Virus record (IMG/VR): IMGVR_UViG_3300031088_000737
Location: 1 to 64,000 of that record
Direction: 5' to 3' (one strand)
DNA from: a virus
DNA length: 64,000 bases
Below are positions 35,423 to 40,640 of this stretch, piece after piece; positions within the stretch are counted from its first letter, which is position 1; every line of letters starts with the position of its first letter. Made by a program: the position numbers and the translations under genes. A model generated the notes under the pieces. It had not been told where the DNA came from and ran no database searches. It was given only the letters and a program-made list of their open reading frames with translations.

Positions 35423-35592
35423 TAAAATGACGAATGGTTTTATCATTTGTTTATTGTATAAAATATGTTTTACTGTTGTTATAGGACATTAACTGCCTTG
35501 CCAAGCACACTGGCGAAATCTTTATGATAAGTGATTCAAACAAATCAACAGTAAATTAATTAACTAAGTGCTTATAGTTAAAGGAGACTAAA

Positions 35593-37116
35593 ATGAGTAA
35601 TTTTGACATTGCCAAGAAAGACGCTGCACGTCTATTAAAAATAGCTAAAGAAAACCTATCCGGTGATATGCCGACCATTCCTATCAAAAATCTAAGTCAA
35701 GCTAAAGAATATATTGCTAAAATAAAAGGATACAAAACATGGTTTGAATATGAACGTGAATTAAAAACACAAGATGCTCAATACATTAATTTTCATAAAA
35801 ATGAAAAATTAGCCGAAATTAAACGTGTTCTTGAAAACATTGATGACCTCACGAAACAAATACCTTTTAAATTTATCCCATCTGATCGTATAGTCGATGA
35901 GTTTAAATACTTTGAGAAAAAAGAAAGACAATCGTATGTCATAGCTAAAGAAATACAGGATAAAACATTTTTTTCTTCGCCTGAAAAACCTTGGAACATT
36001 AGTCAATATCCGCTTTATATCAGTGGTTCTACAGGATCGGGAAGTGATGAAAGTATATTTTCATTGTTGAATAATTATGTGAATAACCAAGAAGGGGCTA
36101 TCATCCTCAATGGTGATGGTGGTCATTCAAGCTTCTGGAAATTATATTCATCCGTTACTCATGCCAAACGAAATGATGACTTTTATATCTTAAATTTTAT
36201 GAGTAGAGATGAAAGTGCATCTAATACCATTGATCCGATTAACGATATCATCGGTGATGAAGCACTCTTTATGATATTGTTTGGTCAAAAAATGGGAGCA
36301 TTGATTAATTCTCTATGTGAATGTATTAAAAATGCAGATGGTTTAGTGTCCTTTGACAATTTAGAATCCTTTTTAAATTTAGACAACTTAAAACTTTTTT
36401 TAACCGATGATTTATTCAAATCTGCATGGTTGCAAATTGAAAGCTACCTTGCTGAGTTAGTAGACTTCGATGAGCGTAAAGCGATTAAAAAACATGTTAT
36501 CAATTGCATGCAAGCTCGAAAAACTGTTGATGTTATACTCAATCATCCTTTTGTTTTTTCTATTCAGCCACAAGTGAAAATGGATAAAGTGTTTTATCAA
36601 CGTAAACTATTGAATATTATGTTTCCATCTTTAGAGAAATCCCCAGATTACTGCTCTAATTTAGTTGCTTTGATTGTGGGAAATATTGAACATGTTGCTC
36701 GCAAATTTAAAGGTGTTCAAAACATTCAAAATATTATTTATAAAGAAATAGATTATTCTACATCTCATCAGTTAGTCGATTATATTTTCAAAGAAACAAA
36801 TCATGAGGCTATCAATTATATTTATAAATTTTATGGTCACTGGCAGCGATCATTGATGATTCCTAAATGTGTTGCTGAATCAAAAACATTTGCATTGATG
36901 AAAGAATATGATGAATACCCAGATGCTTTAAAGATAAAAATTTTTGACTATATGGTGGATAAGAAAGGAATATTTAGTAAAAAAGCCTTAAAAGATCTTG
37001 ATTGTGGTGAGGCATTTATATTCAGTACACTGCATCGACCAGTCTGTAAAGTTAAAATGATATATACGAAAATAGAAAGTGTTCATAGCTCTCAGTTAAA
37101 TAGAAAAAAAATGTAA
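35593..37116 (+). CDS. degenerate DotL/IcmO-like type IVB coupling protein with an N-terminal Glyoxalase_8-like helical domain
   Basis: YISGSTGSGSDE, RNDDFYILNFMS, SNTIDPI and RKLLNIMFPSLEKSPDYCSNL align with DotL/TrbC blocks; Walker A lysine lost; N-terminal AKKDAARL...LSQAKEYIAKIKGYKTW. Confidence 0.7.
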   Translation: MSNFDIAKKDAARLLKIAKENLSGDMPTIPIKNLSQAKEYIAKIKGYKTWFEYERELKTQDAQYINFHKNEKLAEIKRVLENIDDLTKQIPFKFIPSDRIVDEFKYFEKKERQSYVIAKEIQDKTFFSSPEKPWNISQYPLYISGSTGSGSDESIFSLLNNYVNNQEGAIILNGDGGHSSFWKLYSSVTHAKRNDDFYILNFMSRDESASNTIDPINDIIGDEALFMILFGQKMGALINSLCECIKNADGLVSFDNLESFLNLDNLKLFLTDDLFKSAWLQIESYLAELVDFDERKAIKKHVINCMQARKTVDVILNHPFVFSIQPQVKMDKVFYQRKLLNIMFPSLEKSPDYCSNLVALIVGNIEHVARKFKGVQNIQNIIYKEIDYSTSHQLVDYIFKETNHEAINYIYKFYGHWQRSLMIPKCVAESKTFALMKEYDEYPDALKIKIFDYMVDKKGIFSKKALKDLDCGEAFIFSTLHRPVCKVKMIYTKIESVHSSQLNRKKM

Positions 37117-37206: not shown

Positions 37207-38970
37207 ATGAATCAAGAATATTTAGATATAGCCTCAAATTACTCAAGTTCTTCAAGATTTAGTCACTGTATTGGCTATATTAAGATCCTTCCCTTTAAAG
37301 ACCCTACTGATGGTCTTCTCAATAGTTTAAAAACAAATTCTAAAAATATACTATTACCTTTTGGATCAATCAAACAATATTTAGAAGCTGAACAGTTTCA
37401 TATGATTGCTATTCAAGACAATGAAGAAATCACAGCTCGTTATCGTCTATTAAATGATATGAATATTATAAAAAAAATAAAACCTAACTTCACACAATTA
37501 AGTGTATTAGCACAAGAGGCTGGTGTTGATTATGGCGATCTTTTGGCTGATGTTAACCAATTAGAGCAAATAAATGAGCAATTGTTAGCCCCATTTAGAC
37601 GAACAATAGACTATTCACACGAACTATTATTACTCTGTCCTTATTTAATTAAAAGCAAATCATTGCCAACTTATGATAATTATTTGAACATGTTAAAAGA
37701 CTTAAATGAAGAATATGACGATATATTACATAATGGTTTCTATGACAAAATAGAAACACTCAAACATGAAATGGCTCACCATATGATCACTTTTCACAAT
37801 ATATTGGATAAAGTATTGGAAAGAATCCAAGAAAAAAATCCAGAAATTTTGTCTACAATGAGTTCTCGATATTCGACTGAATTAAATAATTCCACTGGGG
37901 ATATTTCACAGTTCTTATTGGATAAAACATTTGATGAAACTATTCAATCTTCTATAAAACTTGAAGACAATCAAAAAGTTCAAGCCTATATCGTATTTAA
38001 AGATAACAGTATTGCAGTGAAAACAAAAGGACAATTTTCAGCTATCAATACGATGTCTGAATTGGATAATTCTTTTGTTGGATTAAAAGAAAGTATTGTG
38101 GCGTATAAATTAAAAAAACGACCTCAAATAGCCAAGTTATTCATAGAGCTTGCAAGAGAAAGCATTCATTTTGACAAGTGTCTTATTGCTATTGATACGT
38201 TTATCAATAATGAACAAATTCTTAAAAATATGAAAATGGATTTAAACATATTTACAAATAAGTCATTTGAAGTTATAGATGACCACATGAATAGTTTAGT
38301 AAATGAACATAAAACTAATCAGTATGCGAACAGTATATTAAGTAATAAAAATAAACACCTATTAACACCCGCAGCAATAGCTTCTTTTAAATTATTAAGA
38401 GAAATGAATGTCACTGAACAAGAATTACAAAAGGCTGTTGGCAAAAAAATGGCGGCTATTAAAACGTCTGATGATTTGGAAGCTTACTTGGTTAAAGTGT
38501 TAGGACAGTATACAGGTTTTAGTCATGAAGCTGTATCTTCTAAATTAGAGCGTGCATCCATTATACCTGTTTATGATAATGGTGATGTATTAGTATTCCC
38601 AGTTACTGAGTATAAACATTCAAAAGAGCTAGGAAGTCCAAGCTGGTGTATTGTTCGTGAAGAAAGTTATTTTAGAACTTATACTGATTACAATCAAAAA
38701 CAATATTTTATGTATGACTTTTCTAAAAATGAAAAGGATAATGATTCTTTAATTGGGTTCACACTCACAAAAGATGGTAATTTTCACACTCAACATCTTA
38801 GAGATGATGATTACCTAAGTGTTGATGAAAAATTACAATATATTGCTGATAATATCATGTTTAACCACAAAGATGAATTTAATCTCAGTGAAAAGAAAAT
38901 AGCCAGCTTGGATAAAATGTTTGAGAAGACATTAAAAAAACAAATAAATAAAAATAAACAGGGTCTATAA
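37207..38970 (+). CDS. hypothetical protein, LGSPSWC family, paralogue of 18135-19943
   Basis: shared blocks listed for 18135; tail KNKQGL. Confidence 0.8.
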   Translation: MNQEYLDIASNYSSSSRFSHCIGYIKILPFKDPTDGLLNSLKTNSKNILLPFGSIKQYLEAEQFHMIAIQDNEEITARYRLLNDMNIIKKIKPNFTQLSVLAQEAGVDYGDLLADVNQLEQINEQLLAPFRRTIDYSHELLLLCPYLIKSKSLPTYDNYLNMLKDLNEEYDDILHNGFYDKIETLKHEMAHHMITFHNILDKVLERIQEKNPEILSTMSSRYSTELNNSTGDISQFLLDKTFDETIQSSIKLEDNQKVQAYIVFKDNSIAVKTKGQFSAINTMSELDNSFVGLKESIVAYKLKKRPQIAKLFIELARESIHFDKCLIAIDTFINNEQILKNMKMDLNIFTNKSFEVIDDHMNSLVNEHKTNQYANSILSNKNKHLLTPAAIASFKLLREMNVTEQELQKAVGKKMAAIKTSDDLEAYLVKVLGQYTGFSHEAVSSKLERASIIPVYDNGDVLVFPVTEYKHSKELGSPSWCIVREESYFRTYTDYNQKQYFMYDFSKNEKDNDSLIGFTLTKDGNFHTQHLRDDDYLSVDEKLQYIADNIMFNHKDEFNLSEKKIASLDKMFEKTLKKQINKNKQGL

Positions 38971-38971
38971 T

Positions 38972-40600
38972 ATGAATTTAAAAGAATACAGTAAAATATT
39001 AAACGATACCTTAGAACGAGTTGAAAACGAAACTGGTCAACAGTTTAGTAAAGATGTTGAAATGTTAGCCATTAATAAATATTTGAATACTCCTATTATG
39101 AAATCAGCTTATCCAAATATTGGACTCATTCATGATATTAAAAATGATGCTTATATGTTGGAATACAATGCAGATGGTTTTCATAAATTTTTTGGTTTGA
39201 TGACAGAAGACGGTTTTGAATTTAGATCAAAATTTGGTAACTACTCCAATATCTTGAGTGGACTAAAACCCATGATCAGTGAAGCTGTTCAATCATCAGC
39301 CAACAACATGAAAGAATTATTGCAACCAGCAAGCACTTTTAAAGATTTCATAAAAAATATTAGTGATAACGATCTTAACAATATTATTGCTGTTTCTGAT
39401 CGATCCTATGCTGAGTTTTTCAAAGTTGTTAAAATGATTAAACAAGAAGACCCGCTCACTCGTGATTTCTTAAAGCTTGCTTTAAAAGTAATGAATAAAT
39501 CCAATCAGAATGCTAAGTTTATTGATAATTATATGGAAGACAGGGTATATGAAATTATAAAAGAAGGGTTTGCAGAAGGTAGTGATCGATTAGGTCAATT
39601 AAGAAGATTACTTCACATTCAAGATTTTGACATTGATAATTATGATTTTGATGACACTGATGATGATCGTCAAGTTGAGTTTCTTACAAATATCATCAAG
39701 GAAGGATTTCCTAAGAACAGTATTGGGTATTTGTTATTAAATGATCATAAAAACTTCATTCATAACGTATTTGAACAACTCGTTTTTGAGAACCTAAAAA
39801 AACCCTTATGTTTTAGTATGAAATTAATCAGCAATGATTTAACAGTTGAACAATTATATAAAGCTAATCCTATTGTGGATATTGTCTTTAATGAAGCATT
39901 AAAACAAGACCCATTGCTAAATGAACAACCAGAAAACCTATTTAAACACAGTGTTATAAAAGATAATGATATATTTACATACGAACAAGGTGTTGATTAT
40001 TTTGCTTATCTCGATCATATTTTAGAAGAAACCGACAGATCATCCGTCATGATGGAACATTTTAAAACGCCACCACATAGACGTTCATATGCAGTCATTG
40101 ACCCAGAACTAGATGTGGATGTTGTTCGTTTTATCGGTACCGCTGGGCCTGATGTTCGATATCTCTTATGTGCCAGTGTTGATAAGAAATCAGAATCTAA
40201 GTATAAGACATTAAATCTAGATACCTATCTTCTTACAAAAAATGTATCTCCACAACAATTAGAAGACGCGGTTAAAAATGTGATTGACTACTGTAAAAAA
40301 AATGAACTTATATTATGTTTAGACCACAAGTCCATGCAACAAGGTTTAAATTATGATGAAGATGATATTGTGTGTAATATAGTTGATAAATTTAAAACTG
40401 AAATCTGTGCTGTTCTATTACCGTCATCATCAGAAAAAAAACGTCATACTTTGATTTCAAATTTGGATCTCCCTTATGCTGATATTGTTAAACTTGATAA
40501 CAAAATTGGAGAGATGATTGAAGCTAATATGAATGTAGATGATATGAAAACCATGTTAAAAAATGGAAATAAAACAATAAAATTAAAAATGTTAAAATAA
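38972..40600 (+). CDS. hypothetical protein, distant paralogue of 19940-21490
   Basis: 1-bp gap from upstream gene; tail KTIKLKMLK; terminator at 40599-40624. Confidence 0.75.
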   Translation: MNLKEYSKILNDTLERVENETGQQFSKDVEMLAINKYLNTPIMKSAYPNIGLIHDIKNDAYMLEYNADGFHKFFGLMTEDGFEFRSKFGNYSNILSGLKPMISEAVQSSANNMKELLQPASTFKDFIKNISDNDLNNIIAVSDRSYAEFFKVVKMIKQEDPLTRDFLKLALKVMNKSNQNAKFIDNYMEDRVYEIIKEGFAEGSDRLGQLRRLLHIQDFDIDNYDFDDTDDDRQVEFLTNIIKEGFPKNSIGYLLLNDHKNFIHNVFEQLVFENLKKPLCFSMKLISNDLTVEQLYKANPIVDIVFNEALKQDPLLNEQPENLFKHSVIKDNDIFTYEQGVDYFAYLDHILEETDRSSVMMEHFKTPPHRRSYAVIDPELDVDVVRFIGTAGPDVRYLLCASVDKKSESKYKTLNLDTYLLTKNVSPQQLEDAVKNVIDYCKKNELILCLDHKSMQQGLNYDEDDIVCNIVDKFKTEICAVLLPSSSEKKRHTLISNLDLPYADIVKLDNKIGEMIEANMNVDDMKTMLKNGNKTIKLKMLK

Positions 40601-40640
40601 AAAAGAGCTTCTAAAAGCTCTTTTATTTTTAAATCTTATA

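Follow-up and report, generated by a model that had tools for sequence, protein, structure and literature searches.

The standard view of coupling proteins is that of membrane-anchored motors for which ATPase activity is essential. The window analysed here (64,000 nt, positions 1 to 64,000 of the 181-kb IMG/VR record IMGVR_UViG_3300031088_000737) contains a gene that the initial annotation had read as a soluble pseudo-ATPase derived from DotL/TrbC. What could a coupling protein do without an anchor and without the residues for catalysis? The features of the gene that bear on this question are the following.

35581..35586, plus strand: Shine-Dalgarno sequence AAGGAG, with the ATG about 6-7 nt downstream (direct reading)
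35593..37116, plus strand: coding sequence of the soluble DotL-like protein, 507 aa (ORF list)
35593..35862, plus strand: N-terminal helical module, aa 1-90, with helices at 3-23, 34-44, 50-63, 69-81 and 83-87
35929..37110, plus strand: coupling-protein core (nucleotide-binding plus all-alpha domain), aa 113-506, equal to DotL 104-588 (VIA-align, family profile)
36025..36051, plus strand: degenerate Walker A GSTGSGSDE, aa 145-153, with Lys151 replaced by Ser, Thr152 by Asp and the glycine scaffold intact
36226..36243, plus strand: TIDPIN motif (SNTLNPF in DotL), with D214 and N217 as family-specific signatures
36259..36543, plus strand: all-alpha domain, aa 223-317, bearing Tyr285 and His301
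36625..36648, plus strand: retained PSLEKSPD motif, aa 345-352 (PALEKSPD in DotL)
36733..36747, plus strand: degenerate Walker B IIYKE, aa 381-385, with Asp replaced by Lys at aa 384 and Glu385 intact

The ORF encodes a real homologue of DotL/IcmO, the coupling ATPase of type IVB systems. A phmmer search of all PDB sequences returned IcmO/DotL (6sz9_A) as the sole match at an E-value of 7.1e-11, with residues 142-205 aligned to DotL 130-193 and residues 262-368 to DotL 298-405. The alignment takes in the blocks GSTGSGKTE, DDLLLINFM and RRILVVLLPALEKSPDELSNLG, so that the DotL/TrbC-like motifs named initially were borne out; LPALEKSPD, listed among them, is a separate conserved motif, kept here as PSLEKSPD. 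With a profile of the family described below, DotL was again the sole match among PDB sequences (E 5.8e-44 over DotL 129-577). The NCBIfam model TrbC_conju matched the 507-aa protein weakly (E 1.1e-3, 17.5 bits vs a cut-off of 800), nothing was found in Pfam at E<=1, including TraG-D_C, T4SS-DNA_transf and TrwB_AAD_bind, and neither PHROGs nor PADLOC gave a match to it. Across the family, TrwB_AAD_bind was weakly touched by just 8 of 79 members. Proteins of this kind slip below the Pfam and NCBIfam thresholds in annotation.

The AlphaFold (AF2) model was confident and compact (pLDDT 91.5, pTM 0.91) and contains the coupling-protein fold, a nucleotide-binding domain with an all-alpha domain inserted. 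Foldseek ranked 6sz9_A first for this predicted model (E 1.3e-13), and VIA-align placed its residues 113-506 on DotL 104-588 of the same chain with Z 29.6 and an rmsd of 2.5 Å over 348 aa, TrwB coming second to DotL with Z 23.6. DndH-C (Z 22.5) and HerA defence complexes were good fold matches as well, and ATPase 3 of EccC with its signal peptide (4n1a) reached Z 14.8. Profile and fold searches thus rank DotL first and point to no other P-loop family, the nearest sequence relative being DotL/IcmO rather than VirD4, TraG or TrwB.

With DotL of Legionella pneumophila (PDB 6sz9, 7ovb) and the IncI-type TrbC, the protein shares the nucleotide-binding and all-alpha core, the DotL-specific motifs G-x-x-G-x-G, DD-h-h-h-h-NF, T-h-[DN]-P-h and P-x-LEKSPD, and the Tyr and His of the DotL all-alpha domain. 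Tyr285 is found in 78 of 79 family members and 30 of 32 canonical DotL-type proteins, His301 in 77 of 79 and 29 of 32, respectively. Unlike DotL, the 507-aa protein has lost the Lys and Thr of Walker A and the Asp of Walker B. The missing Walker A lysine had been noted earlier and is confirmed, together with the Thr to Asp exchange next to it; this lysine is present in all 32 canonical coupling proteins and in 44 of the 79 family members. Walker B had been called unrecognisable, but the site aligns clearly as IIYKE and keeps its glutamate. Among the canonical proteins (n=32), Asp occupies its position in 31 and Glu follows in all 32. Neither GxxGxGK[T/S] nor hhhhDE is matched by the 507-aa protein. 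It further differs from the canonical proteins by signatures specific to the family, namely Pro140 in place of an invariant His, D214, N217, F226, F230 and G231.

No transmembrane segment was found in the 507-aa protein, the Kyte-Doolittle maximum over 19 residues being 1.43 with a cut-off of >1.6 for a membrane anchor. At the place of the DotL anchor, the protein begins with an amphipathic helical domain lacking a hydrophobic anchor, about 90 aa being helical in the model, in agreement with the replacement proposed initially. Throughout the family this N-module follows the pattern MSxLDQAKxEAxRLxKLAK ... NLSxAxExIAxxNGYxxW, and no part of the family proteins is more conserved, its first 60 aa equalling the P-loop in this respect. 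It occurs in none of the canonical coupling proteins, and an HMM of the module detected no further gene bearing it in the record or in five contigs carrying distant relatives (L004-L008).

The resemblance of this module to Glyoxalase_8 (PF20066), also suggested initially, is weakly supported. In the ESM Atlas, PF20066 clusters neighbour the N-module structure at TM 0.51-0.56, values that serve as leads only, and the L006 homologue gave E 0.19 and 12.2 bits with a gathering score of 23.7. The query itself was unmatched by PF20066 even at E<=10, and a fold search over 48,161 PDB chains gave a best Z of 5.0, which is noise. PF20066 had no match in the control genomes or in five genomes of Gammaproteobacteria, and the literature search on it yielded no relevant account. 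A similar helix-hairpin lies at the extreme N-terminus of both, while the N-module, unlike that of PF20066 proteins, is not followed by a glyoxalase domain.

In Legionella, the C-terminal tail of DotL holds DotM, DotN and IcmSW. The C-terminus of the 507-aa protein corresponds to DotL residue ~588, where the adaptor-binding tail (572-783) begins, and thus lacks the tail for DotM, DotN, IcmSW and LvgA; this absence did not figure in the initial annotation. Contacts of the DotL tail to the DotM groove and to DotN start from residue 572 (PMC7280309). A coupling protein without a transmembrane domain has been described in TraJ of pIP501, which has the membrane partner TraI (PMC7434980). Like TraJ, the 507-aa protein has a soluble core that presumably depends on a partner for reaching the membrane. 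TraJ-type proteins, however, are catalytically active, belong to the VirD4/TraG type and have their genes within a conjugation operon, adjacent to that of the membrane partner, whereas the protein studied here is of DotL type, an orphan, catalytically dead by its motifs and equipped with its own conserved N-module. In its identity and architecture it is very probably a cytoplasmic, non-catalytic DotL/IcmO paralogue from which anchor and tail are missing. Sequence, profile, fold and motif state all back the soluble DotL/TrbC-derived pseudo-ATPase of the initial annotation.

The protein had been treated as a one-off, yet it belongs to a large family of about 80 sequence clusters, seen in metagenomes only; searching exhaustively with a profile yielded 72 representatives at E<1e-30. 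In the tree, a branch with 100% support separates the family from 32 canonical coupling proteins; the family is monophyletic, sizeable and previously undescribed. Both catalytic motifs are intact in 26 of 79 members and degenerate in the other 53, with at least 19 changes of motif state along the family tree. End branches are long (median 0.55), those of canonical DotL being mostly shorter. The family can do without the catalytic residues, with the N-module and the all-alpha Tyr/His pair nearly invariant. As it contains both intact and dead members, it offers a natural separation-of-function set.

Among 400 sampled gammaproteobacterial species genomes, canonical DotL was present in 85 and family members in none, and therefore the family is not a general Dot/Icm accessory. 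The best match in these genomes, the G349 protein, is membrane-anchored and TrbC-like, adjoins a DotM/TrbA-like gene and falls outside the family. A profile scan of genome contigs with the close-family alignment detected no relatives, and our literature search on soluble or orphan DotL paralogues gave no relevant account.

Could the gene be a non-functional, decaying remnant of a Dot/Icm or conjugative system that has been lost? Neither catalytic motif has survived, and the gene is isolated from type IV secretion genes, as a relic would be. Unlike dotL, it adjoins neither dotM nor any other such gene. The statement that the window holds no other type IV secretion gene extends to the whole 181-kb record, in which no second coupling protein and no match to T2SSE/DotB, TrbI/DotG or DotI/IcmL was found, nor any counterpart of the ORFs flanking canonical dotL loci (DotM and others). 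The coding sequence, on the other hand, has a strong ribosome-binding site (AAGGAG) and a confident, compact predicted fold, and relatives at 97% and 57% identity are intact ORFs of 507 aa that keep all non-catalytic family signatures. In the 57%-identical relatives, Walker A reads GGCGSGAGE or GGCGSGAME and Walker B IYKE. For one catalytically degenerate family pair, L007 and L008, dN/dS was 0.15 (dS 0.39). Purifying selection thus acts on at least one degenerate family member, which together with the full-length ORFs speaks against the decay considered initially; because of this ratio we regard the family proteins as not decaying. The N-module, family-wide and foreign to every canonical coupling protein, also argues against a relic, an explanation that we consider very improbable.

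The same holds for a phage protein acting in takeover or packaging. IMG/VR classes the record as 'provirus' with a CheckV value of 58%, and the gene for a lipoprotein protease adjoining the DotL-like gene matches a PHROG. No family homologue, however, was found in 50,697 GenBank phages or in IMG/VR viral contigs, and the contigs of family relatives measure 0.5 to 2.3 Mb. Housekeeping genes occur in the record and its relatives (aspS, trxB, gapA, asnB, clpB and a class I aaRS), and recN, nrdAB, ppnN and gltX adjoin family homologues. The TrxB of the record is ~69% identical to that of many Gammaproteobacteria, none being nearer among the matches listed. The record is probably part of the chromosome of an uncultured AT-rich gammaproteobacterium, not of a phage. 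Effector-like genes are present in it, encoding a eukaryote-type kinase, a LepB_N/HipA-like kinase, an ART and a giant lipase. None of ten AT-rich full-length DotL clusters could be matched to the large contigs bearing the family.

The family is thus DotL-derived, soluble, tail-less and orphan, with repeated catalytic loss while the N-module and the all-alpha signature are under selection. This combination implies that part of the core has a selectable function free of ATP hydrolysis, most plausibly the binding of a ligand or partner. As the best overall explanation, with a probability of about 0.5, we propose a non-catalytic binder or adaptor derived from a coupling protein. By its motifs the 507-aa protein would be incapable of ATP hydrolysis and would act by binding. 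The N-module may dock it onto a conserved partner, and the core may bind a ligand, either protein or nucleic acid, or further subunits of coupling proteins. Its likeliest role would be an accessory one, in which it assists or regulates, as an adaptor, how substrates are handled by a secretion apparatus whose genes lie elsewhere in the genome, presumably that of an effector-rich, AT-rich gammaproteobacterium. Other coupling proteins receive their substrates through the all-alpha domain. Coupling proteins mutated in Walker A preserve localisation and substrate interaction (review PMC7434980). Since about one third of the family has intact motifs, the ancestral function may need ATP. A link of the adaptor to secretion is proposed tentatively, and the roles put forward initially, as adaptor, regulator or decoy (for instance in fertility inhibition) of a Dot/Icm system located elsewhere and as reader of the C-terminal tags, stay hypothetical. 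Against the link stand the lack of type IV secretion genes in the 181-kb record, of a gene neighbour common to distant relatives and of family members in the sampled genomes with canonical DotL, the missing tail, by which DotL joins its known partners, and the secretion-independent precedent for a DotL-type ATPase in the PADLOC mad8 model, which scores Legionella DotL at 1.5e-92.

A soluble dead copy might instead join or compete with a membrane coupling protein and so throttle or exclude transfer; the target could be the cell's own coupling protein or that of invading conjugative elements. Compatible with such dominant-negative action, the protein still has the core through which TrwB and DotL build their hexamer interface, its catalytic residues are dead, and the long family branches suggest fast evolution. 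The intact third of the family does not fit a decoy, and an N-module of such conservation implies a fixed cellular partner, beyond mere mimicry. Moreover, cytosolic domains without the membrane domain oligomerise poorly (review PMC7434980), and no conjugative element was found nearby in the 181-kb record. We therefore consider a decoy improbable.

The adaptor could be more specific, a cytoplasmic receptor for C-terminal tags that passes tagged orphan proteins to an export machine. About 50 of the 195 ORFs in the record (about a quarter) share a C-terminal tail that is acidic, then hydrophobic, with M-x-x-hydrophobic, and 8 of ~25 ORFs around the homologue on L004, a 520-kb contig, are tagged likewise. 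Signal reception is known for the all-alpha domains of coupling proteins and for degenerate FtsK-like ATPase domains, and the all-alpha Tyr/His pair is kept even in members without catalysis. XVIPCD-VirD4 is such an example among coupling proteins (PMC8740702). EccC ATPase 3 with its signal peptide is another. Like the 507-aa protein, the degenerate D2/D3 domains of EccC/EssC (4n1a, 4lya) are FtsK/coupling-protein-like P-loop domains (fold match Z about 15), and they bind the C-terminal signal of substrates without a motor role; unlike it, they are fused to an active domain in one membrane protein of a type VII system, so that the kinship is distant and structural only. The co-occurrence of tags and family gene is seen in two related sequences only, tags being absent from 21 kb around the L005 homologue and from L006-L008, and adjacency to tagged genes is not conserved. 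DotM and the adaptors, rather than the core of DotL, recognise the acidic signal in Legionella (PMC7280309). A tag receptor thus has a low probability, and so has its extension, in which a soluble shuttle would use the all-alpha domain to pick up tagged orphan effectors, dozens to hundreds of them, and the N-module to dock them at the export machine. If the link to the tagged orphan proteins were true, the signal and the receptor of an unstudied secretion pathway would be identified, and with it a new route of substrate recruitment in an uncultured gammaproteobacterial lineage of AT-rich symbionts.

The protein might also act apart from secretion. The scaffold could have been recruited elsewhere, for instance into a defence pair of ATPase and partner such as MAD7-MAD8, HerA-nuclease or DndH, with the products of two downstream orphan genes as partners. 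These genes and the end of the block are:

37207..38970, plus strand: ORF of 587 aa, soluble, possibly co-transcribed with the DotL-like gene
38972..40600, plus strand: ORF of 542 aa, third in the same orientation (ORF list)
40601..40624, no strand assigned: terminator-like hairpin, bidirectional, at the end of the three-gene block

No terminator-like site was found between the three genes, consistent with a common unit. A homologue of the 587-aa ORF at 72% identity and the close DotL-like homologue P0004 agree in the length of their longest contig, 42,451 bp. The fold matches to DndH-C and the HerA defence complexes point in the same direction, as does the mad8 model of PADLOC, itself DotL-like, with matches in 49 of the 79 family members, the best at E 7.5e-16. 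MAD8 of the anti-phage MADS system (PADLOC PDLC04140) is a DotL-type ATPase outside type IV secretion. Canonical DotL, however, scores far above the family with this model (1.5e-92 vs 1e-11 to 1e-16), the 507-aa protein is unmatched at E<=1, and no mad1-mad7 gene was found near the DotL-like gene, the neighbours scanned having no defence-model matches. Defence ATPases normally possess catalytic motifs. The two downstream ORFs contain no nuclease or other recognisable domain (no match for the 587-aa ORF in Pfam, PHROG or PDB, no assignment for the 542-aa ORF from PDB or Pfam), and they do not adjoin the gene in L004-L008, where no conserved gene neighbourhood of family members exists at all. 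A function outside secretion is therefore unlikely, though less so than the decoy or the tag receptor. For annotation, the mad8 model cross-matches every DotL. A PcfJ-like reading of the downstream ORFs, a lead from the ESM Atlas, failed confirmation. The 587-aa ORF belongs to a family present in multiple copies, whose C-terminal GSPSWCI.R block is invariant, and this family also occurs on the L005 contig, though away from the DotL-like gene there.

The DotL-like protein of 507 aa is a real, well-defined variant of coupling proteins. Its gene and the features around it are the following.

35581-35586, + strand: AAGGAG directly 5′ of the ATG, read from the sequence
35593-37116, + strand: coding sequence of the 507-aa DotL-like protein, from the ORF list
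37207-38970, + strand: soluble orphan ORF of 587 aa, directly downstream
40601-40624: bidirectional terminator-like site, closing a three-gene block

In a phmmer search of all PDB sequences the sole match of the query was IcmO/DotL of Legionella (6sz9_A, E 7.1e-11), with a P-loop block (query residues 142-205 on DotL 130-193) and the LPALEKSPD block (262-368 on DotL 298-405). Therefore, the DotL/TrbC motif blocks named in the initial annotation are genuine and far beyond chance. A Pfam scan of the query gave no match and the NCBIfam model TrbC_conju a weak one (E 1.1e-3, 17.5 bits vs a cut-off of 800), while a profile of the family of 79 aligned relatives again matched DotL as the sole PDB sequence (E 5.8e-44, spanning DotL 129-577). 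The AlphaFold2 model is confident (pLDDT 91.5, pTM 0.91). Its top Foldseek match is DotL (E 1.3e-13), and VIA-align placed residues 113-506 on DotL 104-588 with Z 29.6 and an rmsd of 2.5 Å over 348 residues, followed by TrwB (Z 23.6) and then DndH-C, VirB4 and HerA. Hence, with regard to a different P-loop family, DotL came first by family profile, Foldseek and VIA-align.

Walker A reads GSTGSGSDE, with Lys151 replaced by Ser and Thr152 by Asp, as had been claimed for the lysine. Walker B, previously called unrecognisable, was described too strongly, because the position aligns unambiguously as IIYKE; its Glu is kept and Lys replaces the Asp found in 31 of 32 canonical DotL/TrbC-type coupling proteins. 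LPALEKSPD is a separate DotL motif, kept as PSLEKSPD. From GSTGSGSDE and IIYKE, it is reasonable to regard the site as catalytically dead. No hydrophobic segment was found in the protein, and the place of the membrane anchor is taken by a helical module (helices 3-23, 34-44, 50-63, 69-81 and 83-87 in the model), which agrees with the proposed replacement of the anchor by a short helical domain. The C-terminal tail of DotL begins at residue 572, bears the DotM-groove and DotN contacts and leads on to the IcmSW-binding region (PMC7280309). The query ends at the equivalent of DotL residue ~588, so this tail is absent. Compared with DotL, these data show a DotL-derived core kept without anchor, without tail and with dead motifs.

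We infer that the protein acts by binding rather than by hydrolysis; Walker A mutants of coupling proteins retain localisation and substrate interaction (reviewed in PMC7434980). That it would serve as a decoy or dominant-negative subunit appears improbable. TMD-less coupling proteins exist, e.g. TraJ of pIP501, but these are active and encoded in their own operon (PMC7434980).

For the N-terminal module, comprising the first ~90 aa, the query had no Pfam match even at E ≤ 10. The homologue at metagenome locus L006 matched PF20066 (Glyoxalase_8) at E 0.19 over profile positions 7-56, and the nearest predicted structures in the ESM Atlas include PF20066-bearing clusters (TM 0.51-0.56 over residues 2-81), along with ankyrin, ClpX-ZB and DUF1835 proteins whose N-terminus is similar. 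Among solved structures none resembled the module (best Z 5.0, noise). The suggested Glyoxalase_8 resemblance is thus a reasonable lead, not membership. Within the record and five related loci, the module is confined to the DotL-like gene.

When 1.84 billion representatives were searched exhaustively with the profile, 72 proteins scored E<1e-30; almost all have 500-620 aa and align over their full length. A further group of 400-470-aa forms lacks the module. All family members are from metagenome sources. Literature searches on soluble or orphan DotL paralogues and on PF20066 turned up no account of a family of this kind. In a FastTree phylogeny, to which long-branch caveats apply, the 79 relatives and the 32 canonical proteins lie on opposite sides of a branch with 100% support. 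Both Walker motifs are intact in just 26 of the 79; the Walker A Lys is Arg in 18 and another residue in 17, and the tree requires 19 or more switches between the intact and the degenerate state. The same positions in the canonical set are K in 32/32, D in 31/32 and E in 32/32. The first 60 residues (MSxLDQAKxEAxRLxKLAK ... NLSxAxExIAxxNGYxxW) are conserved as strongly as the P-loop. Within the all-alpha domain, Tyr285 is kept in 78/79 (canonical 30/32) and His301 in 77/79 (29/32). Family-specific signatures include Pro140, at a position that is invariably His in the canonical set. These results show that the family is large, has lost its motifs repeatedly and keeps a conserved signature of N-terminal module and all-alpha domain; this is the chief addition beyond the single-protein observation.

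The dead motifs (GGCGSGAGE or GGCGSGAME; IYKE) recur, in ORFs of identical length, throughout the query clade, in which P0001 has 97% identity and P0002-P0004 have 57%. GSTGSGKTE and ILDD stand in the sister clade, P0005-P0010, at 39% identity. One degenerate member (Walker A GDTGAGKVE, Walker B IFDNC) has two close relatives, at loci L007 and L008, whose Nei-Gojobori dN/dS is 0.15 (dS 0.39, 447 codons), compared with 0.09 for the adjoining gene. This member is under purifying selection, which argues against pseudogene-like decay within the L007/L008 pair. A relic is very unlikely.

A supported subclade of ten short forms (400-445 aa; P0060, P0065-P0069, P0077, P0078, P0081, P0082) lacks the module and is less AT-biased in composition. 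Eight (P0060, P0065-P0069, P0077, P0082) have GSGR, with Arg for the Walker A Lys, whereas P0081 retains Lys and the P0078 loop is degenerate. GSGR suggests a stable altered P-loop rather than random decay.

The statement that the window holds no other T4SS gene was borne out and extends to the 181-kb record, in which a second coupling protein, DotB/T2SSE, DotG/TrbI, DotI/IcmL and the flanking ORFs of canonical dotL loci had no match. The reading we favour, at roughly one chance in three, is that the protein would serve a secretion apparatus with genes elsewhere, as adaptor or regulator in substrate handling. In a sample of 400 genomes, drawn from the class to which a Pseudomonas genome belongs, canonical DotL (~780-890 aa) is present in 85 and a family member in none; therefore, the family is no general Dot/Icm accessory. 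The sole better match there, at locus L095 (G349:C344), was rejected as a member, being a 646-aa membrane-anchored TrbC-like coupling protein that adjoins a DotM/TrbA-like membrane protein. Its genome also has a canonical DotL; the locus is probably an IncI-type conjugative element.

The second downstream soluble orphan ORF has 542 aa. No terminator-like site separates the DotL-like gene from the two ORFs and a promoter-like site also lies 5′ of the second gene, so the block may be co-transcribed. For the 587-aa ORF, relatives form a multi-copy family of 82 clusters with an invariant C-terminal block GSPSWCI.R..YF, on large contigs (1.5-1.9 Mb) shared with DotL-like homologues, several contigs having two copies; for its 72% homologue, as for DotL-like P0004, the longest contig is 42,451 bp. 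A PcfJ-like identity (ESM-Atlas lead, score 0.90) was unconfirmed by Pfam. At L004-L008, which are more distantly related, the gene has no neighbour in common. A secretion-independent module working with the downstream genes is a less likely alternative, for which the PADLOC model mad8 (PDLC04140, MADS defence system) speaks: it matches 49 of the 79 family members and, as a precedent, shows DotL-type ATPases used outside secretion. Its match to Legionella DotL (1.5e-92) is much stronger than that to family members. The query has no match to it and was rejected as MAD8. Other canonical DotL proteins score 1e-28 to 1e-65; mad8 in practice models DotL-type coupling proteins, and any Dot/Icm genome would be flagged by it.

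IMG/VR classes the 181-kb record as provirus. It carries UvdE, a eukaryote-type kinase, asparagine synthase, GAPDH, ClpB, a class I aaRS and an LplT-Aas fusion, at a G+C of ~30%. Among the matches listed, its TrxB shares ~69% identity with many Gammaproteobacteria and 77-97% with uncultured relatives, whose contigs reach 1.54 Mb. The L005 homologue (1.54-Mb contig) adjoins recN, nrdAB, ppnN, a GGDEF protein, an M23 peptidase and Sel1 proteins, and the L004 homologue (520-kb contig) gltX. Because housekeeping genes occur throughout, the contigs of relatives span 0.5-2.3 Mb and searches of phages and IMG/VR gave no relatives, the label looks wrong, and the same genes and missing relatives leave a phage protein a very slim chance. 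The record is probably chromosomal DNA of an uncultured AT-rich gammaproteobacterium, probably without a close relative among NCBI-named proteins in the matches listed. It is probably host-associated, as supported by the three effector-like genes below.

67179-74108 of the record (L009:3179-10105): 2309-aa protein with Mbeg1-like lipase domain, effector-like
95908-98259 (L010:11908-14256): Pnkp-like kinase-phosphatase-RNA-ligase, RNA repair
161567-162997 (L013:17567-18994): HipA_C and LepB_N-like kinase, effector-like
169110-171020 (L014:5110-7017): ART-PolyVal ADP-ribosyltransferase, effector-like

It is doubtful that the DotL-like protein would itself read C-terminal tags. The tag, in which hydrophobic-x-M-x-x-[I/F/V/L] at the C-terminus comes after an acidic stretch, occurs on ~50 of 195 ORFs of the record (window 10267-61551 and the rest of the record) and on 8 of ~25 ORFs around the L004 homologue.
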